Source: an uncultured Peptoniphilaceae bacterium
Lineage (GTDB): Bacteria > Bacillota > Clostridia > Tissierellales > Peptoniphilaceae
Assembly (NCBI GenBank): GCA_964523385.1
Contig: CAZFXW010000001.1
Location: 1 to 55,454 of the forward strand
Direction of reading: 5' to 3'
DNA length: 55,454 nucleotides
The position numbers and the translations under genes are program-made. Numbering within the stretch: the stretch's first letter is position 1; each line of letters opens with the position of its first letter. Under the pieces are notes generated by a model that searched no databases, was not told the origin of the DNA, and saw only the letters and a list, made by a program, of their open reading frames with translations. Shown one piece after another: positions 27,588 to 50,771 of this stretch.

Positions 27588-27589
27588 AA

Positions 27590-30239: not shown

Positions 30240-30248
30240 GGAGGTTAC

Positions 30249-30866: not shown

Positions 30867-31924
30867 AGGAATACGTTCAAGTAGGAGGCAAGAAGCTTAG
30901 GCTAGGCTATACAACTGGCTCTTGTGCTGCTGGAGCTGCCCTGGCTGCTGGCCTTTACTTAGAAGGCCATGAGCCGAGTCAGGTTAGATTGATGACGCCA
31001 GTTGGTATAGACTTAGAATTAGAGGTAGTCAGACCAGAGTTAGGAGCGGGCTGGGCTAGCTCTTGTATTATTAAGGACGGAGGGGACGACCCAGATGCTA
31101 CTGATGGCATGGAGATTTGCGCCATAGTTAGGAAAAGGGAAGACGGCCAGATTTGCATCAGTGGAGGTCAAGGAATTGGAGTAATCAAAAAAAAGGGGCT
31201 TTTTGGCCAGCTGGGAGAGGCGGCTATCAATCCCGTTCCCCGGCAGATGATTAGGGAGGCTCTAGAAAGTCTGAGTCCAGAAGGCTATGATGTGGAAATT
31301 TTTGCCCCTAGAGGAGAAGAGGTGGCCTTGAAAACCTATAACTCTAGGCTGGGTATAGAAGGTGGAATTTCCATTATCGGGACTAAGGGAATCGTCTACC
31401 CTATGAGCCAGGAGGCTATCATCAAGACTATTTATTTGGAGATAGACGTGGCTCTTGCTGAGTATGGGCCAGAGTCAATCCTCTTGGTGCCTGGCAACTA
31501 TGGGGAGAAGAGGGCCAGCCAGTTAGGCTATCAGTTTCCCTCAGTTCAGATGTCTAACTATGTGGGGGACGCCCTTAAGTATGCAGTAGAAAAGGGTTTT
31601 AAAAAGCTCTACCTCTTAGGCCATATTGGCAAGTTCGCCAAACTGGCCCTGGGGATTTTTAACACCCACAGCGCCTATGCTGACACTAGGCTAGAGGCCT
31701 TTGTCTACTACCTATTTAAATTGGGAGCTCCTAGGGATTTTATTCTAGAGCTTGAGTCCCTTACATCGGCGGAAGAGGCTATGAATTATTGTATAGACCA
31801 GGGCTATGGAGAGGTAATTAGGCGGATGGAAAAGGGGGCTGAGGATAGGATTAGGGCCTATCTAAGGGCAGATGTGGATGTGGAAGTGAGGATTTACAGT
31901 ATGGAGGGCGGAGATGAGGGCTAA
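30863..31924 (+). CDS. cbiD: Cobalt-precorrin-5B C1-methyltransferase
   Basis: LRLGYTTGSCAAGAA N-terminal motif; 353 aa. Confidence 0.85.
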   Translation: MKEYVQVGGKKLRLGYTTGSCAAGAALAAGLYLEGHEPSQVRLMTPVGIDLELEVVRPELGAGWASSCIIKDGGDDPDATDGMEICAIVRKREDGQICISGGQGIGVIKKKGLFGQLGEAAINPVPRQMIREALESLSPEGYDVEIFAPRGEEVALKTYNSRLGIEGGISIIGTKGIVYPMSQEAIIKTIYLEIDVALAEYGPESILLVPGNYGEKRASQLGYQFPSVQMSNYVGDALKYAVEKGFKKLYLLGHIGKFAKLALGIFNTHSAYADTRLEAFVYYLFKLGAPRDFILELESLTSAEEAMNYCIDQGYGEVIRRMEKGAEDRIRAYLRADVDVEVRIYSMEGGDEG

Positions 31925-32504
31925 GTTAGCTGGGATTGGCCCGGGAAATCCTAGGCTTTTGACTGTTGAGGTTAGGGATTTGATTCTAGAGGAAGAGAGG
32001 GTCTTGGCCTTTAGGCGGGCTGGCCAGTCTCTGGCAAATTTACGGGAAGATATTGAGATTATTAGGACTAGGGGAGATATCTTACCTAAGCTGGCCCAGG
32101 GCCCTGCTTTGGTTTTGGCATCGGGAGATCCTATGTATTATGGTATTTTTGATTATTTAGAGCGAGAAGGGGTGGAGCTTGAAGTTTATCCAGGTCTTTC
32201 CTCCATCCAATATTTTGCAGCCCAGGGGAGTTTTTCCTGGCAGGATGCTTATCTAGGTAGTTTCCACGGTAGGGAGATGGATTTTTCAGGCCTAGAGGCC
32301 AGGGAAAAGGCTCTTTATTTTACCGACTCGGTTCACACGCCTAGTTATATTTCTAAGGCCCTCTACCAGAAGGGCTTTAGGGGCCAGATTATGGCAGGCT
32401 ATGATTTGTCCTATGATAGTCAATCGATACAAAATAGAGTGATTGGCCAGGTTTTCGAGGAGGTCTCGACCTTGGCCGTCGTGTATATTAGGAGAGAAAT
32501 ATGA
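31914..32504 (+). CDS. cbiE: Cobalt-precorrin-7 C5-methyltransferase
   Basis: LAGIGPGNPRLLT and ASGDPMYYG motifs. Directly precedes cbiT. Confidence 0.8.
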   Translation: MRAKLAGIGPGNPRLLTVEVRDLILEEERVLAFRRAGQSLANLREDIEIIRTRGDILPKLAQGPALVLASGDPMYYGIFDYLEREGVELEVYPGLSSIQYFAAQGSFSWQDAYLGSFHGREMDFSGLEAREKALYFTDSVHTPSYISKALYQKGFRGQIMAGYDLSYDSQSIQNRVIGQVFEEVSTLAVVYIRREI

Positions 32505-33046
32505 AGTTTTTAAGAGATGAGGATTTTATAAGAGGGGAAATACCTATGACCAAGGGGGATATAAGAATCCTAACCTTGTCCAGGTTAAAGATTAGTCCGG
32601 GTATGACCTGTTTAGACATAGGAGCGGGAACTGGTAGCGTGTCTATCGAGATGGGTAGGATGGGTGGTGTAGTTACCTCTGTGGAAAAAAGACCAGAGGC
32701 AGTTGAGCTTATTAAGGGTAATTCCCAGTTCCAGGATGTGAAGGTGAATATTATAGAGGGGACTGCTCCAGGTGATTTGCCTGACCAGATGTGGGATAGG
32801 ATATTTATTGGAGGATCTAATGGTAAGCTGAAAGAACTGCTCCAATACTCCTATGACCACTTAAACCCTGGTGGTAAGTTGGTTATCAACTGTATTATCA
32901 TTAGCAATGCGGTCATTAGCTACGACTTTATGAAGCACCACTTTACCAGTGCTTCTATGACCTTGGTTTCAATTGCCAACACTAACCAGTATGGCATGAT
33001 GATCGGGGACAATCCAATTTATGTTTTAGAGGCAACTAAGCTTTGA
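32501..33046 (+). CDS. cbiT: Cobalt-precorrin-6B C15-methyltransferase (decarboxylating)
   Basis: SAM-binding DIGAGTGSVSIE motif; 181 aa; follows cbiE. Confidence 0.8.
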   Translation: MKFLRDEDFIRGEIPMTKGDIRILTLSRLKISPGMTCLDIGAGTGSVSIEMGRMGGVVTSVEKRPEAVELIKGNSQFQDVKVNIIEGTAPGDLPDQMWDRIFIGGSNGKLKELLQYSYDHLNPGGKLVINCIIISNAVISYDFMKHHFTSASMTLVSIANTNQYGMMIGDNPIYVLEATKL

Positions 33047-33801
33047 TTTACTTTGTGGGAGCAGGGCCTGGGGCGGCAGACCTGATAACCGTCAGAGGTC
33101 TAGAGCTTATCAAGAAAGCAGATATTATCGTTTACGCCGGCTCCTTGGTTTCCAAGGACCATTTAAAGGCAGCCAAGCAGGGCTGTCTTTTCTATAATTC
33201 AGCTGAAATGGCCTTGCCAGAGATAGTTCAGGTCCTAGAAAAAGGGGCGAGGGAAGGCAAGTTGGCGGTTCGGCTCCACACGGGAGATCCGTCGATTTAC
33301 GGGGCTATTGGTGAGCAGATGAAGGAGCTGGATAAACTGGGACTGGCCTACCAGCTAGTACCAGGTGTCTCTTCCTTTACTGCCGCCAGTGCAGCGGTAA
33401 AAAAGGAGATGACCTTGCCAGGTCTTAGCCAGACTATTATCATAACTCGTTTGGCAGGACGAACTCCTGTGCCGGAAGATGAAAGGCTCCAGGACCTGGC
33501 TAGCCATGGTGCCTCTATGGCGATTTTCTTGAGCGTCCAGAATATGGATGGAGTAGTTGAAGCTTTAGAGGAAGGCTATGGGCGAGATGTAGCAGTGGCT
33601 GTAGTTTACAAGGCTAGCTGGCCAGAAGAGAAAATAGTCAGAGGAACCTTGGCAGATATAGCTGAAAAGGTGGAAGAGGCGGGGATTAGTAGGCAGGCTA
33701 TGATTTTAGTCGGAGATTTTTTAGAAGATGGACTGGATTTTGACTACTCAAAGCTCTACGATGAGACCTTTAGCACAGATTTTAGGCAGGCTGAGAGATG
33801 A
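33043..33801 (+). CDS. cbiF: Cobalt-precorrin-4 C11-methyltransferase
   Basis: IYFVGAGPGAADLITVRG and RLHTGDPSIYGA motifs. Confidence 0.85.
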   Translation: MIYFVGAGPGAADLITVRGLELIKKADIIVYAGSLVSKDHLKAAKQGCLFYNSAEMALPEIVQVLEKGAREGKLAVRLHTGDPSIYGAIGEQMKELDKLGLAYQLVPGVSSFTAASAAVKKEMTLPGLSQTIIITRLAGRTPVPEDERLQDLASHGASMAIFLSVQNMDGVVEALEEGYGRDVAVAVVYKASWPEEKIVRGTLADIAEKVEEAGISRQAMILVGDFLEDGLDFDYSKLYDETFSTDFRQAER

Positions 33802-34754
33802 TAGCCTATCTTTGTTTCACTAAGGGAGGCTTAGGCTTAGCTGAGACCTTGTCCCAGAAGAATCCAGGCAGGATTATCTACAATAGGGAAGAGAAGATTA
33901 AGCCTTTGATGGCAGAACTTTGGGCTCTAAAGGCTTTGGTCTTTATCTCTGCCAGTGGAATTGCCGTCAGGTATATAGCACCCTATGTGAAGGACAAGGC
34001 TAAAGATCCAGCGGTAATTGTAATTGACGAGGGAGGGACCTATGCTATTTCCCTTCTTTCAGGTCATCTAGGAGGAGCCAACGAGCTGGCCAGGGATTTG
34101 GCCAGGCTAGTTGGGGCTGAGCCTGTTATAACAACGGCTTCAGAAGTTAAAGGCCTAGAGAGTATAGACAGTTATGCCCAGAGGATGAATTTGGTTATTG
34201 AGGATTTATCCTCTTTGGCCAAGGTTATGGGTCCTTTAGTAGATGGGGCTCCTCTTTTTATCTATGGCCAAAGCCACTATCCCTATGATAATCTAACCAA
34301 CCTAGAGGGAGCCCAAGTAGTTCTGGTTCAAAGCGATGAGCTAGTTTCCTTTGACAAGCCGACGGCGGTCTTAAGGCCTAGGTCCTTAGTTCTAGGTTTA
34401 GGGGCTAAGAAAGGTGTGACCTGCCAAGCTGTTGGCCGGGCTATATCAGGAGCTTTAAAAGAACTAGGTCTGGCAGAAGGTTCAGTCTACCGGGTCAACA
34501 GTATAGACTTGAAGAAAGAAGAGCAGGGAATTTTAGATTTTTGCCAGGAAAAGGGTCTGGAGTTTTTTACCTACTCGGCCCAGGAACTGGACCAGGTGAA
34601 AGGTGATTTTGAGGAAAGTGACTTTGTAAGGTCGGTTACAGGCTTAGGGTCTGTATCCTCAAGGGCTGCCTTGGCAGAAGGTGGAGACTTGCTTTTAGAC
34701 AAGTATGTTTTAGATGGAGTTACGGTTTCCGTAGCTAGGAGGGAAGATGGGTAA
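33798..34754 (+). CDS. cbiG: Cobalt-precorrin-5A hydrolase
   Basis: A two-domain 318-aa protein with ..FISASGIAVRYIAP.. and ..LGLGAKKG... Sits between cbiF and cbiH, as in anaerobic cbi operons. Confidence 0.75.
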   Translation: MIAYLCFTKGGLGLAETLSQKNPGRIIYNREEKIKPLMAELWALKALVFISASGIAVRYIAPYVKDKAKDPAVIVIDEGGTYAISLLSGHLGGANELARDLARLVGAEPVITTASEVKGLESIDSYAQRMNLVIEDLSSLAKVMGPLVDGAPLFIYGQSHYPYDNLTNLEGAQVVLVQSDELVSFDKPTAVLRPRSLVLGLGAKKGVTCQAVGRAISGALKELGLAEGSVYRVNSIDLKKEEQGILDFCQEKGLEFFTYSAQELDQVKGDFEESDFVRSVTGLGSVSSRAALAEGGDLLLDKYVLDGVTVSVARREDG

Positions 34755-35469
34755 GTTATTTGTGGTGGGGCTGGGGCCTGGAGGTAGGGATTTAATGACC
34801 CTTAGGGCCTTAGAGGTAATAAAGAAATCCGATGCAGTGGTGGGTTACAAGCCCTATATTGAGTATATTGAGGATTTGCTTAATGGCAAGGAGGTCTTTG
34901 CCAATAGCATGAGGGGAGAGTTGGAAAGGTGCCAAAGGGCTATAGACTATGCCCTAGCTGGTAAGATAACGTCTATTGTATCAACTGGAGACCCTGGTAT
35001 ATACGGCATGGCCGGGCCTATCTTAGAGATGGCTCCAGAGTCCTTGGAGGTGGAAGTAGTTCCGGGGGTGACTTCCCAGCACTCGGCAGGGGCAGAGTTG
35101 GGAGCTCCACTTATGCATGACGGGGCTAATATCTCCCTCTCTGATTTGCTTACGTCTTACGATTTGATTATGGAAAGGGTGGAAGCGGCTGCCAGTTCGG
35201 ATATGCTTATCTCCCTCTATAATCCTAGGTCTATGGGTAGACAAAAACACTTGCCTCAGGCGCTGGAGATTATAGGCAGGTACAGGGAGGGTTCTACTCC
35301 TGTTGGCATTGTAAGGGATTCGGGTAGGCCGGGCACCCAGATTCTAATCACTAGCCTAGACCAGGTGGATGTAGAGCTGATGGACATGAAGACTATGGTG
35401 ATTATAGGCAATTCTAAGACCTTTATTAGAGGTGGGAAGATGATTACCCCGAGGGGATATGAGCTGTGA
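34747..35469 (+). CDS. cbiH: Cobalt-factor III (precorrin-3B) C17-methyltransferase
   Basis: LFVVGLGPGGRDLMTLRA and STGDPGIYGMAG motifs. Confidence 0.85.
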   Translation: MGKLFVVGLGPGGRDLMTLRALEVIKKSDAVVGYKPYIEYIEDLLNGKEVFANSMRGELERCQRAIDYALAGKITSIVSTGDPGIYGMAGPILEMAPESLEVEVVPGVTSQHSAGAELGAPLMHDGANISLSDLLTSYDLIMERVEAAASSDMLISLYNPRSMGRQKHLPQALEIIGRYREGSTPVGIVRDSGRPGTQILITSLDQVDVELMDMKTMVIIGNSKTFIRGGKMITPRGYEL

Positions 35470-36200
35470 TTTGGATTGTCGGTGGAACCGGTGAGACTCG
35501 GGAGCTAATCCATGGCCTAGGAGACATAGACTATGTGGTCACGGTGGCTACAGATGAGGGGCTGGATTTCCTACCAGATCCAGCTAAGGGACTGGTAGGA
35601 AGGTTAGATTACAAGCAAATGGTAGATTTGGTTAGGAAAAATAAAATTCAGCTTATTGCTGATATAAGTCATCCCTTTGCTAGCCAGGTTTCTGGAAATC
35701 TCAAAAAATTAGCCTTGGACTTAGGCCTAGCCTATCTTAGGTATGTGAGGCCAGCTATTGATTATGGCGGCAATGTTATTAGAGTTGGCTCCTATGAAGA
35801 GGCTTGTGATTTAATTCAAGGCTTAGAAGGGACTTTTTTCTTTACTACCGGAGTCAACAAGGCTGAGGACTTTATCCATGTTCAAGGGGATAGGAGATTT
35901 GTCTTTAGGGTCTTACCTGTAGCCAGTTCTATAGAAAAGCTTAGGGATTTAGGTTTGGAACTTAGGAATATCTATGCAGGCCTAGGGCCCTTTAGCGCTG
36001 GTTTAAATAAGGAGATGCTTTTAGCTACAGGAGCTAATTATTTGGTGACCAAGGAAAGTGGCAAAGACGGCGGTTTTTATGAGAAACTACAGGGCGCTGA
36101 AGCTGCTGGGGCTCTGGTTATTGTCATAGACAGAGAGGAAGAAGAGGGGCTAGGAGACATTAGCTTACTGATAAAAGAAATATATAAAATAATTGAATAA
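35466..36200 (+). CDS. cbiJ: Cobalt-precorrin-6A reductase
   Basis: IWIVGGTGETREL N-terminus, DISHPFA and TKESGKDGG motifs. Last gene of the operon. Confidence 0.8.
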   Translation: MIWIVGGTGETRELIHGLGDIDYVVTVATDEGLDFLPDPAKGLVGRLDYKQMVDLVRKNKIQLIADISHPFASQVSGNLKKLALDLGLAYLRYVRPAIDYGGNVIRVGSYEEACDLIQGLEGTFFFTTGVNKAEDFIHVQGDRRFVFRVLPVASSIEKLRDLGLELRNIYAGLGPFSAGLNKEMLLATGANYLVTKESGKDGGFYEKLQGAEAAGALVIVIDREEEEGLGDISLLIKEIYKIIE

Positions 36201-36877: not shown

Positions 36878-37179
36878 TTGACATAAAATATCTTATCGGT
36901 TAAAGTATTGAATAACAGATATGATAAAGGAAAAATAGAAACTAGTAACTTTAGCAGAGGCTTTCAGAGAGTCGCCGGCTGGTGAGAGGCGATAAGATTA
37001 GCTAGGGTGAATACATTCTATTCCTTCCCACCGAATTGAGTAGGCTGGGACGGTTTCTCCCGTTATAGAGATAGGGTGTCGATTATTCTGCACTCGAAGA
37101 GGCAGGCCTCGCGAGGGGTTTGTGAATCAAGGTGGTAACACGAGTAAGCGCTCGTCCTTTATAGGATGGCGCTTTTTTA
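36878..37179 (+). promoter_or_regulatory. Promoter plus T-box leader (apparent Tyr specifier UAC) with a terminator/antiterminator
   Basis: Promoter: TTGACA 36878-36883, 17-nt spacer, TAAAGT 36901-36906. Stem I elements: AGAGAG 36966-36971 and TGGTGAGAG 36980-36988. Specifier context GAA-TAC-A at 37009-37015. AGTAGG 37039-37044 and CCCGTTAT 37059-37066. T-box motif AATCAAGGTGGTAACACGAG at 37125-37144. Terminator hairpin plus a T-run at 37146-37179. Confidence 0.8.
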
Positions 37180-37220: not shown

Positions 37221-38669
37221 ATGACTAATATCAAATTTTTTGCAACAGAAGAAATACCTTTAGAGATGCATAGGGTGTCGGTGGTTTCGCCGCTGAAGTT
37301 GGTACCAGTTGAAGATAGATTAAAGGCTATCAAAGAAGCTGGATTTAACAATTTCTTACTTAAGAACAAGGATGTATTCCTAGATATGCTTACAGACTCA
37401 GGTGTTAACGCAATGTCAACAATCCAGCAAGCTAGTATGTTTATGGCTGAAGACTCCTACGCTGGATCAGCTACCTTTACTAGACTAGAGGCAAAAATTA
37501 AGGAAATTTTTGGAATGAAACACTTCCTGCCGACCCACCAAGGTAGGGCATCGGAGAACATTATCTCTCAGGTTTTCGTTAAAGAAGGTTCGGTTGTGCC
37601 GATGAACTTCCACTTTACCACTGCCCAAGCTCATATAGACAGGTTAGGTGGTAGGATTGAAGAGGTTATTATCGATGAAGGCCTTGTAATCACATCTGAT
37701 TGTCCTTTTAAGGGTAATATCGATCTGGAAAAATTAGAAAACCTGATAAAAGAAGTTGGGCCAGAAAATGTCCCCTTTATTAGAATTGAAGCTGGAACTA
37801 ACCTTATAGGTGGCCAGCCAGTCTCCCTACAAAATATCAGAGAAGTTAAGAAGATTGCCGACAAGTATGGAACAATTACGGTAATGGACGCTTCCCTACT
37901 TATGGACAACCTATACTTTAACAAGATTAGGGAGCCTGAGTGTAAGGATATGTCTATTAGGGAAATTACCAAGGAAATTATGAAGGAAATCGACATTATG
38001 TACTTCTCTGCTAGAAAGCTTGGATTCGCCAGAGGTGGTGGAATTGCAACCAACAATGATGAGCTAAACGAGAAGATGAAAACCCTGATTCCTCTATTTG
38101 AAGGTTTCCTCACCTACGGAGGAATGAGCGTTAGGGAGATGGAGGCTATAACCGTAGGTCTAGATGAGACTATGGAAATGGATGTAATCTCCCAAGGGCC
38201 AGAGTTTATCAAGTTTATGGTTAACAAATTAGATGAGAAGGGAATTCCGGTAGTAACTCCTCCAGGAGGTCTAGGCTGTCATCTAAACGCAGGAGCCTTT
38301 GTAGACCATGTACCTCAAGACCAATACCCATCAGGAGCCTTGGCAGCAGCCCTGTTTATAGCTGGAGGTATAAGGGGAATGGAGAGGGGAACCCTGTCTG
38401 AGGCTAGAAAGCCAGACGGTTCAGAGACACTAGCGGCTATGGAACTGCTTAGGCTAGCCTTGCCGAGAAGGGTCTTTACCCTAAGCCAGGTTATGTACAC
38501 AATCGATAGGATCCAATGGCTGTACGAGAATAGAGAGCTAATTGGAGGCCTGAGATTCGTCAAGGAACCAGAAACTCTTAGATTCTTTATTGGAGAATTA
38601 GAGGCTATTGGCGACTGGCCAGAAAAGTTAGCAGCTAAATTTAGAGAGGATTTTGGAGATTCTCTATAA
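37221..38669 (+). CDS. PLP-dependent beta-eliminating lyase (tryptophanase / tyrosine phenol-lyase family)
   Basis: Collinear by eye with TnaA/Tpl over its whole length: ..DRLKAIKEAGFNNFLLKNKDVFLDMLTDSGVNAMS..SYAGS..LPTHQGRASENI..GGQPVSL..FSARKLGFARGGG (PLP-Lys region)..ALPRRVFT..RFF... RBS GGAGG lies 8 nt upstream. Substrate (Trp or Tyr) is not decidable by eye. Confidence 0.8.
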   Translation: MTNIKFFATEEIPLEMHRVSVVSPLKLVPVEDRLKAIKEAGFNNFLLKNKDVFLDMLTDSGVNAMSTIQQASMFMAEDSYAGSATFTRLEAKIKEIFGMKHFLPTHQGRASENIISQVFVKEGSVVPMNFHFTTAQAHIDRLGGRIEEVIIDEGLVITSDCPFKGNIDLEKLENLIKEVGPENVPFIRIEAGTNLIGGQPVSLQNIREVKKIADKYGTITVMDASLLMDNLYFNKIREPECKDMSIREITKEIMKEIDIMYFSARKLGFARGGGIATNNDELNEKMKTLIPLFEGFLTYGGMSVREMEAITVGLDETMEMDVISQGPEFIKFMVNKLDEKGIPVVTPPGGLGCHLNAGAFVDHVPQDQYPSGALAAALFIAGGIRGMERGTLSEARKPDGSETLAAMELLRLALPRRVFTLSQVMYTIDRIQWLYENRELIGGLRFVKEPETLRFFIGELEAIGDWPEKLAAKFREDFGDSL

Positions 38670-39350: not shown

Positions 39351-40421
39351 ATGAAAAAAGCTTATTATAAAACTTTCAGCAGGCACAATACTTTCTTACT
39401 CACTTTTAATAAACCCAATCGTAGCTAAGGGAAAAACAAGCCAGGCTATCGAGACTCCAAGAATAGAAGAGCAAATCGGAATCGTTCTAAACCAAGTTGA
39501 ATTAACTAAAGAAGACTTAACTAATGAAAAAGAAGACTCTATCGAAATTCAAATGGACCAGATTGACTTAGTTGAAGAAACTGAGACTGAGTTAGAGACT
39601 GAAGAGACAGAAAAAGTTATTGAAATCTCCCTAGCAGGGTTAGAAACTGAAGTTAAGGAAGAAGAGCCAGCGGAAGAGATTCCAGCAGTTATCGAAGTTA
39701 AAGAAGAAGCACCAGCAGTTGCAACTGCTCCGGTAACTCCAGTAGACTCACAAGAACCAATAGAAGAAAGACCTGAAGAAGTTGAAACTGAAGAGCTAGC
39801 TCCAGTAGTTTATGAATCATATGATCACCTATACACTGATGAGGCTTACCAAAAGTACCTTTGGCTCTAGAAGATGGGGATTACGAAAATAGGCACCTTG
39901 AGGGTGGAACTAGAGCAACTTTCAACAACGAGCAAACTCTTTCAATCGAACTTCTAAATTCAGAGTTCGCAAGACTTTTAAATGCTGAAAGAGCAACCTA
40001 TGGATTAAATCCAGTTACAGTAGGTCATAACCTTAGAGACGGCAACACCAACAGAAAGTTAGAAATGCTTCCTCACAACTCACAGACATACCAAAACCAA
40101 GCTCACACTAGACCAGATGGAACTGACCACAGCACAGCTTTCAATTACATGGCAGGATTTGACCACTATTTCTTGGAAAATAGTGGAGTTTTAGCATATG
40201 ATGGAAATACATCAAAACTAAACAGTGAAAGATACCTGGCAGAGCAGTTCTTCACAATCTGGAAAAACTGCCAAGGCCATTACGAATCTATGATGGAAGA
40301 GGGTTTAAGGGAAATCTACCTAGGCATATCTCTTTCTGAGTATATGCTAGACCAGAGTACTGGCGAATACCACGACAGACACTCATTCATCGGTTTCTTA
40401 AGCATGAAGGCTGGATGGTAA
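39351..40421 (+). pseudogene. Secreted acidic-linker + CAP/SCP (YkwD-like) domain protein gene, interrupted by two frameshifts
   Basis: ATG + A6 at 39351-39359 reads MKKAYYKTFS..stop. With one A fewer it reads MKKLIIKLSAGTILSYSLLINPIVAKG (a signal peptide), in frame with ORF 39553-39870 (Glu/Thr/Pro-rich). A second shift near 39840-39860 joins ORF 39861-40421, which holds the CAP-like pattern LLNAERATYGLNPV..W..C.GHYESM. Confidence 0.6.
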
Positions 40422-41438: not shown

Positions 41439-41468
41439 AAACCCTGCTGCGGCGGGGTTTTGTTTTTT
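41439..41468 (+). terminator. Rho-independent terminator after fba
   Basis: AAACCCtGC-tgcg-GCgGGGTTT hairpin followed by a T-rich run. Confidence 0.75.
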
Positions 41469-41547
41469 CTTTCTAGCTATCTATCCTATGTTATCTGGGT
41501 CTAAATATGATAAGATAGTCGGTAACTTATTATTAGAAGGGGTATGT

Positions 41548-43146
41548 ATGGACTATTTAAAATACGTTGAAGAATTAGATATGGGTATTTTGTCGACAAA
41601 TCAGCCTGGTCCTTTGGCCTGGGTGGATTTGGCATGCCAATTTGAAAAGATAAATTACGAGACTAGCAATGAGTTGGATAAGAGGTCTTTACTTCTCTTT
41701 GACGCGACCATGGATGCCCTTGAGGGTTATTATAGGTCTAAGGGCTCTACTGTAAAGGAAGAAATTATTGAGAATAAGGGATCTGAAGAGATAATTTCAA
41801 GGATTATGTCTTTACTTATAGCCATTACCAAGGCTAGGGTCGAAGACTTTTATTCAGAAGAGGGCTGGGAGGATAGTCGAGAAGAGGAAATCCTCAATTA
41901 TATCTTTGCCGAAGGGAAATTTTTCAACCTTTACTCAGGATTGATGGAAGCCAATATAGCCAGGCTGGGCCAGGCTGAAGAAGAGATTATCTTTCTTCTA
42001 AATCTAACTGACAACGGCCTTAGGAAGCTTTGGTGGGATGAGGATGGCCAAATCAGGGCTTCATTGGGGGCTTCCCATAGGGATCTAAGGGCAATGGATT
42101 TGGTTAGGGAGATAAAGACTAAGCCTTGGACTAAGTACCCTTCCAGAAGACTGATGGTAGATATATTTATCTATGTCTATCAGATGCTCAAGGAAGAAAT
42201 TGGCCAGCTAGATCAAGAGCCTAGCTATTTTGACTCTAGCTACTATACGTGGCTTAAGATTCAAAGGGATTTTAAGCATTTTGATAAGAGGGGTCAGGAG
42301 TCGGAGGACTTGGAGAGAATTTTTAGTTCTATTCTTAGGATTATCGAAGCAGAGGTAAGGGATAGCCTTCAGACCTTTGGCAAGTTAGATAAGACTAAGG
42401 CTAAGGCTCAGCTCTTAGAGTCTTTGCCGGAGGATGTTTACGCTAAGATTATGGAGATTATCGGAGAAAAGCTTGCTGATAAGGAGCTAGTTAGGTCCAC
42501 TATGCTAGAACTAACTCAGGAGACGGGTATGAGCTGGACCCTAAATGCAGTTTTGGCCCTAGACTGTGGTCCAGATCAGGCTTTAGACTTGATTAATAAG
42601 TGGAGGGAGTTACCAGACTATAAGAAGATAATTAACCGAGTATCAAGTCAGACGAAAGACCTTTGTTTGAAATCAGAAGTAGATAGGCTAAGGGTGGAGG
42701 CTGGTCTTATCCAAGCCAGCCCTAAGCATGAGCCCATAACTAAAGCTTGGCAGAATATCCAGCTAGATCTTGAGGAGATTCACTGGTCTAAGAGTCAACT
42801 TAGGGAAACGGAGAAGCTGTTAGAGGGCTACATGGGTGAGGAAGAAGAGAAAAAAGAGCCTAGCCTAGGGGATTTCCTTAGAGAACATGAAGAGAATCAA
42901 GAATCAAGTTGCCAGCTAGGTCCTTATGGAGACTTCCTTAAGGATTTGCTTAAGGATAGGATTTTAGAATCAAAATTGGCTAGCTATTCGCTAAAGGCAG
43001 GGATGCTTCCGGCTGCCTATATAAGCAGTTTAAACCAAGAGCTGGATAGGCATATAGGTGGTCAGGCAGTTTACTTAGAAGACGGTTATTATCAAATAGA
43101 TGAATTTTACCAGGTTGAAATTGAGGGGATTGTAAATGACGACTAA
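41548..43146 (+). CDS. Hypothetical 532-aa protein, first gene of a three-gene operon; C-terminal TerB-C-like segment (candidate SngA-like component)
   Basis: ATG 41548 (MDYLKYVEEL..) behind GAAGGGG is preferred over the ATG at 41488. The protein is soluble, helical and acidic, with an EEEEKKE stretch. The last 45 aa or so (..AAYISSLNQELDRHIGGQAVYLEDGYYQIDEFYQVEIEGI) resemble the TerB-C pattern (I-x-x-L/I-N-E-x-a-x-x-x-x-G-D-x-l-l-E-x-D..Y-x-I-x-E-E). No N-terminal motif was recognised by eye. Confidence 0.5.
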   Translation: MDYLKYVEELDMGILSTNQPGPLAWVDLACQFEKINYETSNELDKRSLLLFDATMDALEGYYRSKGSTVKEEIIENKGSEEIISRIMSLLIAITKARVEDFYSEEGWEDSREEEILNYIFAEGKFFNLYSGLMEANIARLGQAEEEIIFLLNLTDNGLRKLWWDEDGQIRASLGASHRDLRAMDLVREIKTKPWTKYPSRRLMVDIFIYVYQMLKEEIGQLDQEPSYFDSSYYTWLKIQRDFKHFDKRGQESEDLERIFSSILRIIEAEVRDSLQTFGKLDKTKAKAQLLESLPEDVYAKIMEIIGEKLADKELVRSTMLELTQETGMSWTLNAVLALDCGPDQALDLINKWRELPDYKKIINRVSSQTKDLCLKSEVDRLRVEAGLIQASPKHEPITKAWQNIQLDLEEIHWSKSQLRETEKLLEGYMGEEEEKKEPSLGDFLREHEENQESSCQLGPYGDFLKDLLKDRILESKLASYSLKAGMLPAAYISSLNQELDRHIGGQAVYLEDGYYQIDEFYQVEIEGIVNDD

Positions 43147-44455
43147 AATAAATCCTAGAGATGCAGAGAGTATTATCAGAGGCTTAGAGGGAGGCATTGT
43201 ACCAAGTAGGGGGATTAGGCACTTGCTGGTTGGGAGGAAAAATGAGGTTCTAGAGATTATAGATACCTTAGACTACCTAGACCAGGGAGGCTCTGATATA
43301 AGATTTTGGGTAGGTGATTTCGGAAGTGGTAAGTCTTTTATGCTGAGGACTATCGAATCTATGGCCATACAGAGGAATTTTGTAGCCTCTACTGTAGATT
43401 TAACTCCCTCAAGGAGGTTCTATGCTACAGATAAGAAGGCCAAGGCTCTCTACAAGGAGATTGTAGACAATATGGCTACTATGGGGGCAAGAGATGGAGG
43501 AGCAATTGAGGCCATAGTAGGTCAGCTAGTGACAGGGATATTAACCGAAGGAATGGAAGAGGGGATAGTAGATTTGACAGATTTAGATGACGAGGCCAAG
43601 GCCTGGGTTAGGGATAGGATTTTAGACTTAACTACTAGCTTTAAGAGCGCTGGCTTGGCCTACGAGCTAGGAGAGGCTATCTACCACTTCTTTATTGGTG
43701 AGGTAAGTGGAAACAGGAACCTAAAGCTGGCGGCTATTCGTTGGATTAGAGGGGATATAGATTTGAAGATGGAGGCTAGGCGGGAGCTGGGATTGAGCGA
43801 GATAATCAACGACGACAATTGGTTTGATGCTCTGAAAACCCTGGTAGAGCTCTTCAGGGCTATTGGCTATGGAGGTCTAGTGGTCAACTTTGATGAGGCG
43901 GTGAATCTCTACAAGCTTCCTATGGCTAGGACCAGGGAGAGAAACTATGAAAGGATTCTCAATATTTACAATGAGTGTAAGTCTGGTGCAATTGAAGGTC
44001 TTTTTGTAAACTTTGGTGCTACGAGGAAGACGGTCTTTGACGAAAGTAGAGGTATGTCTAGCTATGGGGCCCTTAAGGGCAGGTTAGGTTCTGAAGAGTC
44101 TATGGACTCTAAGTATGTAAATACCAACAGGACAGCCCTTGGTTTGAAGCCTTTAAGTCCTGAGGAAATCTATACTCTCCTTGATAACTTAAGAAATATT
44201 TATTCGGTTTATTGGGACCAGGACATGGATTTTAAGGGTGAAAATATCCGGACCTATATGGAGCTCCAGTTAAATAGGCCAGGAGCTGACGAATTTTTAA
44301 CTCCTAGGGCTGTAATCAAGGATTTTTTAGAGATTTTAGATATAAAAAGGCAAAACCAAGGGGTAGATGAACTAGAGATTATCCAGGAAAAGTTTGGAAG
44401 TATGCCTATCTACAAGGACCAAGAGGATCTAGATGATTTACTAGAGGTGTTTTAA
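43136..44455 (+). CDS. DUF2791 / BrxD-like P-loop ATPase (candidate SngB-like component)
   Basis: N-terminal ..AESIIRGLEGGIVPSRGIRHLLVGR.., then Walker A GDFGSGKSF (encoded at 43313-43339), ..AIQRNFVASTVDLTP.. and Walker B-like GLVVNFDEA. This is the layout I recall for the BREX-associated BrxD/DUF2791 ATPases. It overlaps the upstream gene by 11 nt. Confidence 0.7.
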   Translation: MTTKINPRDAESIIRGLEGGIVPSRGIRHLLVGRKNEVLEIIDTLDYLDQGGSDIRFWVGDFGSGKSFMLRTIESMAIQRNFVASTVDLTPSRRFYATDKKAKALYKEIVDNMATMGARDGGAIEAIVGQLVTGILTEGMEEGIVDLTDLDDEAKAWVRDRILDLTTSFKSAGLAYELGEAIYHFFIGEVSGNRNLKLAAIRWIRGDIDLKMEARRELGLSEIINDDNWFDALKTLVELFRAIGYGGLVVNFDEAVNLYKLPMARTRERNYERILNIYNECKSGAIEGLFVNFGATRKTVFDESRGMSSYGALKGRLGSEESMDSKYVNTNRTALGLKPLSPEEIYTLLDNLRNIYSVYWDQDMDFKGENIRTYMELQLNRPGADEFLTPRAVIKDFLEILDIKRQNQGVDELEIIQEKFGSMPIYKDQEDLDDLLEVF

Positions 44456-46494
44456 TGGACCTCTATCAAGGGCTGAGTCGTCAACTGAGAAAATTTATCT
44501 ACGAAAAAGGATGGCGGGATTTTACTCCTATACAAAAAGGAGCCCTTAAGTACTCTAAGGCCAGCAATGATAATTTGATTTTAGTAGCCCCTACAGCCTC
44601 GGGAAAGACCGAGGCGGCTTTTTTGCCAGCAATCGATTCAAGTCTTGGCAAAGAGGGGCTAAAAATTATATATATATCCCCTCTTATCGCCTTAATAAAC
44701 GACCAGTTTCAAAGGATTAGCCAGCTCTGTCAAGACCTAGAGTTTCCAATTACATCCTGGCATTCAGAAAGCTCTGCTAGGGCCAAGGCTAGGCTTTTGA
44801 AAAATCCCCAAGGTATTCTCTTGATTACTCCAGAGTCAATTGAGGCTATGTTGGTCAACCGACCTGAAGAGGCTGGAAGGCTATTTAAGGCTGTAGATTG
44901 GGTTTTGGTAGATGAAATTCACGGTTTTAGCCAAGGGAACAGGGGTGTTCAGCTAAGGTCTCTCTTGGCTAGGATAGAAAAATATATGGATAGCACTCCT
45001 AGGTACTTGGGTATGAGCGCCACTGTGGCTCCAGAAGACTTTGAATTGATGAAGGATTTTTTTCCTAAAGGCAGGGAGACCCTGGTTTTAAGGGACAAGG
45101 GGTCTAATGTATTGAGGGCGAACCTAACTTACTGGCCAGTTTCTAAGGGGATTTCCCAAGATGCAGTTGAAGAAATTTATCGCCTTTCCCAGGATCAGTC
45201 GTTGCTGGTTTTTCCCAATTCTAGGGCAGATGTTGAGGAATTAAGTAGCCGACTTAGGCAGCTAGCTAGGGAAAGGGGGAGCCAAACTCGCTATTTTGCC
45301 CATCACGCCTCTATATCGAAGAGGGCTAGGCGAGAAGCTGAAGCCTTTGCCTTAGCTGGCCAGGGTTTTTTCACTATCTTTGCAACCTCCACCTTAGAGA
45401 TGGGCATAGACATCGGTGCAGTAGACGGAGTTGTCCAGTTCTCTGCTCCAGCAGATGCTAAGTCTTTGGCTCAAAGGCTTGGCAGAGGTGGTAGGAGGAC
45501 TGGTGAAAATTTCCTCTACCTCTTGGCTACTAATCCCTTTGACCTACTTCAAAGTAAAGCAGCCCTGGCAATGGTTGAAGATGAGGATTTGGATAAATCT
45601 CAGCCAACTATAAAGCCCTTTGATATCCTAGCCCATCAGTTCCTGTCCATGCTCTTGGAGAGAAATGGAATTGAGGTGGGTCAAGCCTTAGAGTTTTTGT
45701 CTAGTTCCAAGGCATGGAAAGATATAGAAGTTGATGAATTTAGGGCTATTCTCAATCATATGCATAGGGAAAATTATATTGAAGTCCTTGAGTCAGAGGT
45801 TATCCTAGGTTTAGAAGGGGAAAAATTTTTAAATATGGGAGATTTTTATGCTGTCTTTGAAGATGGGGAGAGCTTTCGCGTCTACCACAAGGATGCTGAG
45901 TTGGGCCGTTTAGCTCTGAGCCCTAGTCTTGAAGTAGGGAGGAATATTATCCTAGGTTCTAGAACTTGGGAGATATGCGAAATCAACTATGGACAAAAGA
46001 GAATCCAGGTTGTTGAGGGGAAAAAGGGGGAAGCTCCACTCTTTATCGGAGCAGAGATTGTCGTTTCCTGCCAGCTAAGGTCTAGGATGAGAAAGCTTAT
46101 TGAGGCTAGACCTTGGGAGGAAGATGAGGATTTGAATCCATTAAGGGAAATCTCTATCCAAGATGAGATTGAAGAGGACATGCTGAGAACCTATTTAGGA
46201 ACTAGGGCTAACCAGAGTCTGATAATCCTCTGTGATTACCTTGGATACAATTTCAGACTAGAAGACTGGCAGAGTCTTATCAGGGGTAGGGGTATTGAGG
46301 GGGCTTTAAGTAAATTGGCGGATAATTTTCCTACTTCAGAAGAGTTAAAGGACTTTCTCTTAGCCAGGGAAGACTTGATTGATAGGTTTTACCGGGCTAA
46401 GTATAGGGAGCTTTTGCCCTTAGAGCTAAGGGCTCAGTATATTATTGATAATATCTTAGCTGTAGATGAGGTAAGGGATTTTTTAGGAGGATAA
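44455..46494 (+). CDS. Lhr-like DEAD/DEAH-box SF2 helicase with a C-terminal extension of about 300 aa (candidate SngC-like component)
   Basis: Q-motif FTPIQ, motif I APTASGKTEAA, motif II DEIH, motif III SAT and motif VI QRLGRGGRR. TAATG overlap with the ATPase gene. Confidence 0.8.
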   Translation: MDLYQGLSRQLRKFIYEKGWRDFTPIQKGALKYSKASNDNLILVAPTASGKTEAAFLPAIDSSLGKEGLKIIYISPLIALINDQFQRISQLCQDLEFPITSWHSESSARAKARLLKNPQGILLITPESIEAMLVNRPEEAGRLFKAVDWVLVDEIHGFSQGNRGVQLRSLLARIEKYMDSTPRYLGMSATVAPEDFELMKDFFPKGRETLVLRDKGSNVLRANLTYWPVSKGISQDAVEEIYRLSQDQSLLVFPNSRADVEELSSRLRQLARERGSQTRYFAHHASISKRARREAEAFALAGQGFFTIFATSTLEMGIDIGAVDGVVQFSAPADAKSLAQRLGRGGRRTGENFLYLLATNPFDLLQSKAALAMVEDEDLDKSQPTIKPFDILAHQFLSMLLERNGIEVGQALEFLSSSKAWKDIEVDEFRAILNHMHRENYIEVLESEVILGLEGEKFLNMGDFYAVFEDGESFRVYHKDAELGRLALSPSLEVGRNIILGSRTWEICEINYGQKRIQVVEGKKGEAPLFIGAEIVVSCQLRSRMRKLIEARPWEEDEDLNPLREISIQDEIEEDMLRTYLGTRANQSLIILCDYLGYNFRLEDWQSLIRGRGIEGALSKLADNFPTSEELKDFLLAREDLIDRFYRAKYRELLPLELRAQYIIDNILAVDEVRDFLGG

Positions 46495-46495
46495 A

Positions 46496-47734
46496 ATGCT
46501 GAATTTCTTAGACAAGAAGATTCATCGCTGGATTGTTGTGGCAGGGCTTTTCATATACCTGTCCTCGTCTTGGGGAGTAATTTACAACTTAACTAGTCTA
46601 TATATGACTCCAGTCCAGGAGCACCTAGGCCTGAGCCGCCAGTATGTGACTATGGGGCTGACCTTTAGGAGTATTGGGGTAGTTTTAGGAGGGTTAGCTT
46701 TGGGGGCTGTCTACAAGAGGCTTAGTGTAATGAAGGTTTTAAGGGCTTCTTCTTTAGTCCTACCAGCGATTTTCTTTACCCAGTACTTTATCAACCATAT
46801 TTCTATCTACTACCTATCCCTATGCCTACAGACATTTTTTGTAATCCTATGTGGCTTTGTGCCGGTTTCTATCCTTATAAATCAGTGGTTTCCTACAAAC
46901 AGAGGCTTTGTTATGGGAATCACCACTACGGGATCAAGTGTGGGAGGGGTTATCTTTAATATGTTAGGGAGCCATGTCCTTATAAACTATGGCTGGCAAG
47001 AGTCAGTTATGGCGGTATCAGCTAGTATGGCGGTAGTGATGGCCCTGACTTCCTTTTTATTGATTTCGGAAAATAGAGACTTTGAGGGAGATAGGGAAGA
47101 GCAGCTAGGCTCAGGCCTAAGCTATGAACAGATTAAGGGGGATAGGACCTACTACCCTGTTATTTTGATTGTCTGTTTGATGGGGGCTTCGGTAAATGGA
47201 ACTATTACAAATATTATTCCTAGGCTCTTAGACTCGGGCTACGGTATAGCCTATGCAGCTAAGATGATTAGTCTAAATATGGTGGCTTTATCCTTTGGTA
47301 AGTTTTTCCTGGGCTATCTCTATGACAAGCTTGGAATTAAGAAGAGTACCTTGATTTCAGCTGGCACTCTAGGTATAGGGGTTGGTGCTATGTATTTTTC
47401 ATCAATTCCTATCTTTGTACCAATCTTAGCCATAGGGATTGGGGTGGGAACAGGCTTTGCTTCAGTGGCCAATCCAGTTTTTATCAACTCCCTCTATGGG
47501 GAAAAGGAGTTTTCTAGGATTTCTGGCTACCTTCAAGGGGCAAACGGTTTGGGAGCTATTATCGCTCCTATTATAATTTCCTTACTTTATGGGGTGAGTG
47601 ATTCCTATGATGAGGGAATATTGGTTTTATTTTTTAGTGCAATTCTTGTTATCATCCTAACTCTAATATTTGTTCCTGACGTTAGGGAGGAAGATAAGCT
47701 ATTTTTAAAGAAGATGGCAGAGGCAAAAGAATAG
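46496..47734 (+). CDS. MFS transporter (12 predicted TM segments)
   Basis: A 412-aa polytopic protein. Its ATG lies 1 nt after the helicase stop, and its AGGAGG RBS sits inside the helicase 3-prime end. Confidence 0.75.
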   Translation: MLNFLDKKIHRWIVVAGLFIYLSSSWGVIYNLTSLYMTPVQEHLGLSRQYVTMGLTFRSIGVVLGGLALGAVYKRLSVMKVLRASSLVLPAIFFTQYFINHISIYYLSLCLQTFFVILCGFVPVSILINQWFPTNRGFVMGITTTGSSVGGVIFNMLGSHVLINYGWQESVMAVSASMAVVMALTSFLLISENRDFEGDREEQLGSGLSYEQIKGDRTYYPVILIVCLMGASVNGTITNIIPRLLDSGYGIAYAAKMISLNMVALSFGKFFLGYLYDKLGIKKSTLISAGTLGIGVGAMYFSSIPIFVPILAIGIGVGTGFASVANPVFINSLYGEKEFSRISGYLQGANGLGAIIAPIIISLLYGVSDSYDEGILVLFFSAILVIILTLIFVPDVREEDKLFLKKMAEAKE

Positions 47735-48360: not shown

Positions 48361-48395
48361 AAAAAAGGGACTGACCTCTGTCAGTCCCTTTTTTG
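48361..48395. terminator. Bidirectional terminator-like hairpin downstream of tRNA-Val
   Basis: An A6 run, the GGGACTGAC-ctc-TGTCAGTCCC hairpin, then a T6 run. Confidence 0.7.
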
Positions 48396-48415: not shown

Positions 48416-48492
<77 letters not shown>

Positions 48493-48590: not shown

Positions 48591-49430
48591 ATGAATAAAT
48601 TACTTATTTTTGTGCTTCTCTTAACCTTGATAGGATGTGGACAGGTCTCTGACGATTTTACACCTAAGGGAGAGGATAAGTTGGGCACGACTGATCAAGA
48701 CCAGGTCCTAACAGAGACTAAATCTGAAGTAAGTGAAAAGAAGGTAGAACTTCCGACTAAGAAAGCAGGAAATCCCATAGACAAGAAGTTGGTAGATGCT
48801 TCGCGCCTTAGGTCTGGAGTATATATAGAGACTGAGTATTCTATAAGAAACGGAGAAGGTAATGCCTCTGGCTATAGCGAGACTAAGTATGCCAAGGATG
48901 ATCATAGGTATTGGCATGAAAGTGATGGGGGTTTTGAGACCAACGAAGAATACATAGTTGATGGTAAGAGGTATTACAAGAAGGATGTTTTTCAGGATTG
49001 GTCAAAGTCGGACTTTGACGATGCTGGATTTGAAAATATTGAAAAAAGTTTTAAGGTAGAGGATCTAACCAGGAAGATTCTAATAAATCCAGAGCTTTTT
49101 GAAGTGGATGAAACTGAAAAGGAGTTTATATTTTCTTTTGAAAGTGGTGATGACCAGGCAATAAAGGACATGGGCTTTACTAACTTTATCTTTCCATCAG
49201 TAGACGAAGGCGCTGAGGTGACTTTTGCTAAATTTGAAGTCTTATATATAGTGGATAAATTTAGTTATAAGCCTATTAGCCTCTACTATTTTATCGACAA
49301 GGAGATTAAAGGCCCTGGTTATGAGGATCAGGTTGTCCAGTCCCAGACCCAGAGATTCTTGTCTTTTAATGAACCAGTGGAAATTGTTCTACCTGAAGAA
49401 GCTTTGAAGCTTAAGAAGCAAGAGCACTAA
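48591..49430 (+). CDS. Hypothetical lipoprotein (paralog of 49986-50771)
   Basis: Lipobox LTLIGC. Shares collinear blocks with the downstream paralog (..FIFSFESGDDQAIKDMG.. versus ..YVFTYESDDPEMIKTIR..; ..VDKFSYKPISLYYF.. versus ..VDSKTLKPIIINIY..). Confidence 0.65.
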   Translation: MNKLLIFVLLLTLIGCGQVSDDFTPKGEDKLGTTDQDQVLTETKSEVSEKKVELPTKKAGNPIDKKLVDASRLRSGVYIETEYSIRNGEGNASGYSETKYAKDDHRYWHESDGGFETNEEYIVDGKRYYKKDVFQDWSKSDFDDAGFENIEKSFKVEDLTRKILINPELFEVDETEKEFIFSFESGDDQAIKDMGFTNFIFPSVDEGAEVTFAKFEVLYIVDKFSYKPISLYYFIDKEIKGPGYEDQVVQSQTQRFLSFNEPVEIVLPEEALKLKKQEH

Positions 49431-49985: not shown

Positions 49986-50771
49986 GTGTTGTTAGCGGTT
50001 GGCTTGGGTATTTTTCTAGCAGCGTGCTCTCCAACTACTGAGCTGACTGAGGAAATTTCCCAAACTGAGATTAGCAGTGAGGAAAATGAGAAGGTTACCG
50101 AAGAGAAGGTGTTAGAGGTTGATCCTAGATCTGCAGATCTTATCAAAGGTGGAGTAGTAGAAAAGTATGTCCATGCTGAGGAAATTATGACTAGAGAGGC
50201 CAATGAAGGAGAGGCTAGGGTGGAGATTCATACTGAGTCTAAGCATGCTCCGGAAAAGGGACTTTACTGGGAAAAAACCAGCATAGACGAAGGCGATGGC
50301 CAGGTTGAATTTGAAAGATACATAGACCAGACTAGGGAGTACTTTCAGGATGGCGAGATTTGGGACAGTAGGGAATTGGCAGAAGGGGAATATGAAGAGA
50401 TTATCCATTACTATCCTTACGGCTGGATTTCTGAAAAAATCATAGTTCAACCTAATTTATTCGATTTAAAATCCGAAGAAGGCCAGTATGTATTTACCTA
50501 TGAATCTGATGATCCAGAGATGATTAAGACTATAAGGTCGGATATGAGGTTAAATAAAGAGGACATGGCAGATTTGAATTTTTCTGATTTCAAATTTGCC
50601 TATACTGTTGACTCTAAAACCTTAAAGCCTATCATCATAAATATATACTCTCTAAGTGAGGAAGATGGTATAAGCATAATTGAGGAAAGGGACATTAAGA
50701 TTATTGAAATTAACGAAGACTTTGAGTTTTCTATGCCTGAGGATATAAAGGCTCTGGGAGATACTGAGTAG
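49986..50771 (+). CDS. Hypothetical lipoprotein (paralog of 48591-49430)
   Basis: Lipobox FLAACS with a GTG/TTG start. Shares C-terminal blocks with the upstream paralog. Confidence 0.65.
   Translation: MLLAVGLGIFLAACSPTTELTEEISQTEISSEENEKVTEEKVLEVDPRSADLIKGGVVEKYVHAEEIMTREANEGEARVEIHTESKHAPEKGLYWEKTSIDEGDGQVEFERYIDQTREYFQDGEIWDSRELAEGEYEEIIHYYPYGWISEKIIVQPNLFDLKSEEGQYVFTYESDDPEMIKTIRSDMRLNKEDMADLNFSDFKFAYTVDSKTLKPIIINIYSLSEEDGISIIEERDIKIIEINEDFEFSMPEDIKALGDTE

Follow-up and report, generated by a model that had tools for sequence, protein, structure and literature searches.

A three-gene operon on the chromosome of an uncultured Peptoniphilaceae bacterium probably represents a member of the Shango family of defence systems (SngA-SngB-SngC), from a TerB-less lineage in which SngA would combine a soluble helical domain, some 350 residues long, with a C-terminal TerB_C domain. 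The operon lies on contig CAZFXW010000001.1, in a stretch of 55,454 nucleotides (hereafter, the window), just after the terminator of fba, the gene for class II fructose-bisphosphate aldolase, which sets the 5′ boundary of the module. Shango has been validated as an anti-phage system in E. coli (Millman 2022) and P. aeruginosa PA14 (Johnson 2023), where it protects against several phages, typically 10- to 100-fold (10.1101/2022.05.11.491447; PMC10250203). In the literature, Shango is described by the TerB domain PF05099 (PMC10952713). The function of the operon is likely to be anti-phage defence. A first reading of the window, made from its letters alone (the original prediction), had proposed a Shango-type module composed of a TerB_C-like protein, a BrxD-like ATPase and an Lhr-like helicase.

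The operon and its three products

The operon is confirmed as genuine. Its three genes are intact and contiguous, share one strand, follow the A-B-C order of Shango systems (Table 1) and are translationally coupled. Genes 1 and 2 overlap by 11 nt (43136-43146, ATGACGACTAA) and genes 2 and 3 meet in a TAATG at 44453-44457, with an overlap of 1 nt. Both overlaps of the open reading frames (ORFs) are as the original prediction had described them, and the genes do follow the fba terminator directly; the description of the operon as stand-alone is not strictly correct, however, because a gene for a transporter of the major facilitator superfamily (MFS) adjoins gene 3 with a gap of 1 nt. Concerning the start of gene 1, 41548 is likelier than 41488, because of the sequence AGAAGGGG at a spacing of 5 nt and because gene callers chose 41548 (532 aa) in seven of the ten contigs displayed. 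In the 78 nt that separate the fba terminator from gene 1, a consensus scan revealed no sigma-70-like promoter.

Table 1. Positions of the features discussed and, in the last five rows, composition of SngA proteins from other loci
Feature	Positions	Strand	Description
Intrinsic terminator of upstream fba	41439..41470	+	hairpin 41439-41460, 9-bp stem with 5 GC pairs, then T-run
Shine-Dalgarno-like AGAAGGGG	41535..41542	+	5 nt before gene 1 ATG at 41548
Gene 1 (SngA-like)	41548-43146	+	532 aa; alternative 552-aa reading from 41488
Gene 1, N-terminal all-helical domain (predicted)	41686..42696	+	residues ~47-383; custom HMM 6e-45; no Pfam family
Gene 1, TerB_C domain (predicted)	42736..43122	+	residues ~397-525; custom HMM 1e-20; degenerate
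Gene 2 (SngB)	43136-44455	+	439 aa
Gene 3 (SngC)	44455-46494	+	679 aa
MFS transporter gene	46496-47734	+	Pfam MFS_1 1.8e-38; begins 1 nt past gene 3 stop
SngA, E. coli IncY plasmid (L007)			769 aa; TerB_N 1.6e-46 + TerB 2e-07 + TerB_C 5e-26
SngA, Aeromonas plasmid (L009)			789 aa; TerB_N 2.5e-36 + TerB_C
SngA, Hymenobacter plasmid (L008)			505 aa; TerB_C only
SngA, Clostridium algidicarnis and Acidilutibacter			699-706 aa; TM2 + TerB_C
SngA, Anaerococcus			580 aa; TerB_C only

The best PADLOC match of gene 2 is SngB (4e-128, residues 2-435 on positions 3-433 of the 439 of the profile); the BrxD model gives a weaker score (1.4e-41). Over its full length, the protein belongs to the Pfam family BrxC_BrxD/DUF2791 (2.3e-110). 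It carries the Walker A motif GDFGSGKSF at residues 60-68, including K66, a Walker B motif at D253-E254 and a conserved R267; the motif and the BrxD/DUF2791 character that had first been read from the sequence are thereby borne out. No match was obtained for gene 2 in a search of PDB sequences. With its AlphaFold2 model (mean predicted local distance difference test score, pLDDT, 80), the top Foldseek matches are the N-terminal ATPase region of BrxC (9zll_B) and several ORC/Cdc6 proteins of archaea and eukaryotes (1w5t, 2qby, 1fnn and 7tji), with probabilities of 1.00 and modest E-values. The model points to an AAA+ ATPase of the DUF2791/BrxD family with an ORC/Cdc6-like fold, which agrees with the literature, where BrxD has been placed in the ORC-Cdc6 clade of AAA+ proteins (PMC12839542).

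Gene 3 is, as judged from its sequence matches, an Lhr-like superfamily 2 (SF2) helicase, SngC. Its best PADLOC match is SngC (1.1e-158, 528 bits, over residues 4-676), followed by BrxHI with a weaker score (5.6e-106), and Pfam recognizes DEAD (9.5e-30), Helicase_C (8e-14) and WH_Lhr. The DEAD and Helicase_C scores, like that of gene 2 on BrxC_BrxD, are well outside the range of chance matches. The helicase core (residues 24-348) is followed by an Lhr winged helix (374-437) and by a C-terminal region (440-679). All the motifs announced by the original prediction could be located, namely APTASGKTEAA (motif I, 45-55), DEIH (153-156) and QRLGRGGRR (340-348), as well as SAT at 188-190, and the catalytic motifs of genes 2 and 3 are intact. 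In the PDB search, the nearest solved structure is the core of Mycobacterium Lhr (5v9x, 1e-34), and other solved relatives are Lhr 7lhl and YprA/MrfA 6znp. SngC belongs, together with BrxHI, DruE and DpdJ, to an SF2 clade specific to defence systems (PMC12278908). No recognizable nuclease domain is present in the three proteins.

The locus is assigned to Shango because the three PADLOC Shango models match in the expected order and because SngB and SngC outscore the BrxD and BrxHI models of bacteriophage exclusion (BREX) systems. Automated tools would very likely call the locus Shango, a statement based on gene-level models and not on a system-level call. Nevertheless, since gene 2 and gene 3 do match BrxD and BrxHI, it may be asked whether they are a BrxD-BrxHI pair left over from a type 2 BREX (Pgl) system, the rest of which would have been lost. 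Such an origin is hardly tenable. The Shango models score much higher, the NCBIfam BREX_BrxD model gives gene 2 only 140 bits for a cut-off of 350 bits, and a TerB_C protein always precedes the pair in related loci. Moreover, none of the BREX core genes PglZ, PglX, BrxC and PglW was found by Pfam and PADLOC among the window ORFs scanned, which lie outside 24-36 kb. Over about 31.9-36.2 kb, the annotation of a matching contig gives cobalamin-synthesis genes, after a cobalamin riboswitch. Thus, the two statements of the original prediction on the nature of the system, Shango-type and not BREX, are both upheld, the profile searches matching SngA, SngB, SngC, DUF2791, DEAD and Helicase_C.

The locus is nonetheless a variant lineage of Shango and not a plain member. 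It is filed in this way because TerB (PF05099), the domain by which the literature describes Shango, is absent, as is TerB_N. Gene 1 matches the PADLOC SngA profile only in part (6.5e-12, residues 174-528 on positions 210-526 of 528), and Pfam TerB_C (PF15615) is found at 23.4 bits (E = 7.4e-05), below the cut-off of 26.3 bits. TerB gave no Pfam match in gene 1 even at E <= 1, and TerB_N (PF13208) none with Pfam, with a custom hidden Markov model (HMM) or with hhalign. A word-indexed homologue search returned only gene 1 itself. With an exhaustive HMMER search of 1.84 billion representative proteins, 31 matches were obtained at E <= 0.001. Among the matches listed, self excluded, the relatives are 16-35% identical to gene 1, full-length ones not exceeding 28%, and they align over the middle (residues ~42-375) and the C-terminus (~400-530). 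No gene 1 homologue was found in plasmid records. An alignment was built from 31 sequences: gene 1, 27 of the HMMER relatives and 3 SngA proteins from related loci. All 31 match PADLOC SngA, 29 match TerB_C and 10 match TM2; TerB or TerB_N was found in none of them (TerB at E <= 0.01). At the family level the assignment of the TerB_C region is clear, on the strength of these 29 matches out of 31, of the custom HMM and of the hhalign alignment with the TerB_C of the E. coli plasmid SngA (L007). In profile-profile comparisons with hhalign, TerB_C alone was aligned with confidence, and the idea that gene 1 might conceal a TerB or TerB_N domain was rejected on this ground. Hence Pfam, the alignment, the custom HMM and hhalign all concur with the original prediction that gene 1 has no obvious canonical TerB domain.

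The AlphaFold2 model of gene 1 (mean pLDDT 78) is entirely helical, except for a C-terminal beta-hairpin. The helical N-terminal part spans the first ~390 residues, and the protein has no membrane segment. When the model was compared with PDB and viral structures using Foldseek, only generic helical-repeat matches were observed (best E = 0.3 and 0.2), from which no fold was assigned, and TerB was absent among the 50 PDB matches displayed. A search of PDB sequences with the family profile gave a single match at chance level (YopN, E = 0.012).

It may be imagined, from such distant resemblance, that gene 1 is a decaying or non-functional SngA, drifting beside an ATPase-helicase pair that has been retained. 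In favour of this idea, gene 1, at 6.5e-12, ranks with the poorest matches to SngA, values at other loci ranging from 2e-19 to 1e-105; TerB_C is under the Pfam cut-off, only 31 relatives are detectable, and gene 1 has G505 where 84% of the homologues have Asp and W401 where 81% have Arg. We nevertheless consider decay quite unlikely, since the gene is full length and stop-free in the 12 contigs of the species where it could be scored, with a ratio of synonymous to non-synonymous polymorphic codons of 11:7, since its coupling to gene 2 is preserved and since its model is confident (pLDDT >= 70 for 409 of the 532 residues). In addition, E267, R271 and N496, conserved at 99% across 67 helical-domain homologues, are all kept in gene 1.

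Two builds of SngA

A scan of species-representative genomes identified at least 522 SngB-encoding loci, the best 80 of which were kept. In nearly all of these 80 loci, an ORF of ~330-1070 aa ends at the start of SngB, and in about 66 a helicase ORF of ~700 aa lies just 3′ of it, a layout that recurs across many phyla. The 78 proteins encoded directly 5′ of SngB were classed with custom HMMs. The helical domain followed by TerB_C was found in 67 of them, from Firmicutes, Bacteroidota, Leptospira, Chlorobi, some Acidobacteriota and others. TerB_N + TerB + TerB_C was found in 8, and one further, shorter ORF has TerB + TerB_C; these nine TerB-containing proteins are encoded in Proteobacteria, Actinomycetota, Chloroflexota, Gemmatimonadota, a cyanobacterium and some Acidobacteriota. 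No protein combines the two builds, and a TerB HMM made from the TerB-containing SngA proteins matched none of the 67 helical-domain proteins. In a neighbour-joining tree of SngB, the nine TerB-containing loci form a single clade without intruders.

The existing models reflect this division. The PADLOC SngA profile covers TerB-containing proteins from end to end (1e-105; positions 12-524 for the L007 protein) and helical-domain proteins only partially (2e-19 to 5e-50). With hhalign, the gene 1 family aligns with the Hymenobacter plasmid SngA (L008) over residues 167-522 (98.3% probability), whereas with the E. coli plasmid SngA (L007) the TerB_C region alone aligns. Among the 67 helical-domain proteins, 33 are minimal and soluble like gene 1 and 18 carry an N-terminal TM2 or other membrane-like segments. 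As classed by these profiles, most of the nearest 80 loci have the TerB-less build. The suggestion of the original prediction that gene 1 might be an undescribed variant therefore stands insofar as a TerB-less branch appears to be undescribed, but this branch is the majority form and not a rare one.

Whether this build differs in function may also be considered. Tentatively, and a little short of an even chance in our estimate, it could be a functionally distinct, undescribed Shango subtype, in which the conserved helical domain, with its near-invariant E267 and R271, would act as a sensor or regulatory module of a new kind. If this were true, TerB and its proposed role in membrane surveillance would not be essential to how Shango works, and the invariant core would consist of TerB_C, the ORC/Cdc6-like ATPase and the Lhr-like helicase.

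Other genes recur around the related triads. A BRCT-domain gene lies directly 3′ of SngC in the Hymenobacter locus (L008, 8565-9218) and in locus L038 (10466-11368). According to Pfam, BRCT is among the commonest neighbour domains, with 7 of 148 flanking ORFs, and RNase_T/DEDDh exonucleases account for 3; phmmer with the BRCT neighbour gene found it at 2 loci only, versus 7 by Pfam. These BRCT and RNase_T/DEDDh genes may be accessory components of the TerB-less lineage.

Genomic context, variation and spread

The operon is flanked by housekeeping genes, with fba on the 5′ side and the MFS gene, tRNA-Val, DUF6612 lipoproteins, Usp and ApbE on the 3′ side. Elsewhere in the window, PADLOC models mad3, mad8, AriA and LmuB, to which ABC-type ATPases often respond, gave matches that are read as cross-hits of the four ABC transporter ATPases of the window. 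Twenty-three contigs of the species were read, the ten contexts displayed being from ten different samples. In all 23, as far as each reaches, fba is followed by the three genes and by the MFS gene. No empty site, with fba beside the MFS gene, was seen in these contigs. Wherever genes 1-3 could be scored, in 11-12 contigs, they are complete and not interrupted by stop codons, and the synonymous to non-synonymous ratios of polymorphic codons for genes 2 and 3 are 15:8 and 12:9; the polymorphism is consistent with purifying selection on the three genes. The maximum nucleotide divergence from the window reaches 0.9-1.7% in the Shango genes, as compared with 0.35% in fba and the beta-eliminating lyase gene further upstream, that is 3-5 times more.

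Horizontal spread of the module would fit the distribution of SngB, because about 120 relatives of SngB are listed with identities of 59-64%, in Clostridium, Tissierella, Acidilutibacter and Anaerococcus, while the host fba and MFS proteins have no close relatives, the window fba being alone in its 90%-identity cluster. Among species-representative genomes, the best SngB match is 62% identical. SngB homologues were found in 695 plasmid records, of which 542 belong to conjugative plasmids; none was found in phage records. For 40 related triads, the association with other defence genes was assessed from the 148 ORFs lying nearest to them. The strong matches are GajB (4.5e-227), AbiP2/DRT (4.7e-185), PDC-S02 and PDC-S48 (three times), in a count made with no matched control. 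At the Acidilutibacter locus, GmrSD, PemK/MazE and an M78 peptidase are nearby.

These data bear on another explanation, in which the operon would be a housekeeping module for DNA repair or replication restart, an Lhr-type helicase acting with its AAA+ partner and an adaptor on damaged host DNA or on RNA:DNA hybrids. Among solved structures, gene 3 is indeed closest to helicases associated with repair, Lhr (5v9x, 7lhl) and YprA/MrfA (6znp), and its top NCBIfam match is a ligase-associated DNA-damage-response DEXH helicase. The presence of the operon amid housekeeping genes in every contig of the species that was read, and the weak defence-island signal around related triads, would also be expected of a repair module. 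However, that NCBIfam match is far under its cut-off (232 bits for 850 bits), while gene 3 reaches 528 bits on SngC. Moreover, the family is patchy across phyla, the nearest SngB proteins, 62-64% identical, being found in other Firmicute groups (including Clostridia, Tissierella and an Erysipelothrix metagenome-assembled genome), whereas the host fba and MFS proteins lack such relatives. The family is also common on conjugative plasmids, the operon is several times more polymorphic within the species than its flanking genes, and homologous systems have been shown to be anti-phage. A repair function is on this balance unlikely, and membership of the Shango defence family is preferred.

Since the MFS gene begins 1 nt past gene 3, the limits of the transcription unit deserve consideration. 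The AGGAGG that would serve as its ribosome-binding site sits within the 3′ end of gene 3. The junction shows no terminator-like site and has no room for one, the weak hairpins listed by the scan being inside coding sequences. Transcription would probably produce a four-gene unit including the MFS gene. One could go further and imagine that the MFS protein is a functional membrane partner, replacing the membrane link provided by TM2 or TerB in other SngA proteins. The conserved arrangement in every contig reaching that far and the lack of a membrane segment in gene 1, 18 of the 67 related SngA having TM2 or other transmembrane segments, would go in this direction. Such a partnership is very improbable, however. 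MFS_1 is outside the 25 commonest families among the 148 ORFs flanking the 40 related triads, and the gene 3′ of SngC is different at each of the related loci inspected (L003-L009). The next-best homologue of the MFS protein is only 29% identical, and none is close enough for a linkage test. On this comparative evidence the MFS gene is not a conserved part of the Shango system.

Several other elements of the window may be mentioned. Downstream of the operon, tRNA-Val (GAC) is encoded on the minus strand at 48416-48492, beside a perfect 15-bp bidirectional terminator hairpin (48361-48394); no integrase or repeat suggestive of an integration site was seen in this region. Two DUF6612 lipoprotein-like paralogues follow (48591-49430 and 49986-50771), 24% identical and both with acidic, low-complexity N-termini. 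Upstream, a T-box leader (36923-37162, 109 bits) directly precedes the gene of a beta-eliminating lyase (37221-38669) of the tryptophanase / tyrosine phenol-lyase type, for which regulation by a T-box is unusual. The T-box leader and the lipoprotein-like signal sequences suggest that the host is a Firmicute. At 39553-40421, two overlapping ORFs (105 aa, acidic; 186 aa, weakly CAP-like) correspond to one 275-aa gene in another strain (L091, 7995-8822); the split results from one extra G near 39863, either a frameshift polymorphism or a pseudogene. The cobalamin riboswitch (23501-23646) is followed by tightly packed + strand genes (23710-36200, GC 45-49%), of which those at ~31.9-36.2 kb are annotated CbiD, CbiG, CbiJ and methylases in the matching contig. 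The region 16000-20000, with a GC content of 24-29% versus about 40% elsewhere and short ORFs only, may be a foreign or mobile segment. Finally, two ORFs of the window match DEDD_Tnp_IS110, the transposase domain of the IS110 family.

Possible mechanism and comparison with known systems

Shango is a validated defence system, for which no mechanism is given in the literature searched, and in September 2025 authors still regarded as unclear how TerB-containing defence proteins protect. Considering the properties of the three proteins, the following scheme may be envisaged. SngB, as an AAA+ ATPase of the ORC/Cdc6 clade, would oligomerize on ATP and would load or activate SngC on phage DNA or on replication intermediates. 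The idea of a helicase loader comes from the BrxD-BrxHI pair, BrxD being tightly paired with BrxHI and proposed to act as helicase loader or activator (PMC12839542). SngC, an Lhr-like enzyme, would be expected from its family to track along DNA in the 3′-to-5′ direction. SngA would dock to the SngB-SngC pair via TerB_C, the domain common to all SngA proteins, and its variable N-terminus would serve as a sensor or localization module, soluble here, anchored by TM2 in Clostridia and made of TerB_N + TerB in Proteobacteria. Interference would then consist of ATP-driven unwinding or remodelling of phage DNA; cleavage has no place in this model because no nuclease domain is detectable.

Several observations weigh against the attribution of the operon to a TerB-less Shango lineage and against this scheme. 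The literature search returned no TerB-less Shango with a tested phenotype, and phenotypes are published only for systems with TerB or TerB-like domains; here, the validated systems are presumed, from their descriptions, to have the TerB_N + TerB + TerB_C build. In gene 1, TerB_C falls below the Pfam cut-off, and a Gly occupies a position that is Asp in 84% of the homologues. The operon of the window has housekeeping genes around it (fba, MFS, tRNA-Val, cbi operon), neither a further defence gene nor a marker of mobile elements lies nearby, and none of the 23 contigs of the species lacks the operon. Only a handful of the 148 ORFs flanking related triads are strong defence matches, most of the others being metabolic or housekeeping. 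The mechanism itself is inferred by analogy, and searches of the literature and of the PDB found no structure or biochemistry of Shango.

What the locus would bring lies in the comparison of SngA proteins. Gene 1 and its 66 relatives show a large lineage in which another domain stands in place of both TerB and TerB_N, whereas TerB_C, the ATPase and the helicase remain constant. This constancy identifies the minimal conserved machine, and the comparison speaks for an input module, open to exchange, at the variable N-terminus of SngA. The present version is compact and soluble (532 + 439 + 679 aa, no membrane segment) and should suit biochemistry and structure work. Annotation pipelines probably label such loci Shango already, and generic annotations such as 'TerB C-terminal domain-containing protein' exist for them; what is gained is a more precise description and not a new system. 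The TerB-less lineage is common in public genomes; its recognition should be useful without surprising a specialist, and the locus does not by itself reveal the mechanism.

Among known systems, the Lhr of Mycobacterium smegmatis (5v9x) has in common with gene 3 a RecA1/RecA2 core and an Lhr-type winged helix. The similarity ends at about residue 440 of gene 3, and Lhr is a stand-alone repair helicase, without ATPase or TerB_C partners. Type 2 BREX (Pgl), through BrxD-BrxHI, shares with the locus the linkage of a DUF2791 ATPase of the ORC/Cdc6 type to an Lhr-like SF2 helicase with a winged helix. In contrast to BREX, the locus has no PglZ, PglX, BrxC, PglW or methyltransferase and has a TerB_C partner instead; with no methyltransferase, a marking of self versus non-self is thus not evident at the locus.

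The closest counterparts in architecture are triads such as that of the Hymenobacter monticola plasmid (L008), annotated as 'TerB C-terminal domain-containing protein + ATP-binding protein + DEAD/DEAH helicase', which has the same architecture as the operon. Sequence identities are low, at most 28% for gene 1 and 37% between SngB and its Hymenobacter homologue, and many members of this type carry added N-terminal TM2 or other transmembrane extensions. The distance is greater from TerB-containing Shango. In the example of the E. coli plasmid (L007), SngA has 769 aa with TerB_N + TerB + TerB_C, whereas gene 1 has 532 aa and an unrelated helical N-terminus, and SngB of the window is only 32-33% identical to the listed homologues from enterobacterial plasmids. 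What the locus has in common with Shango is the order of the three genes, their tight coupling, SngB and SngC homologous over their full length, and the TerB_C domain predicted at the C-terminus of SngA.

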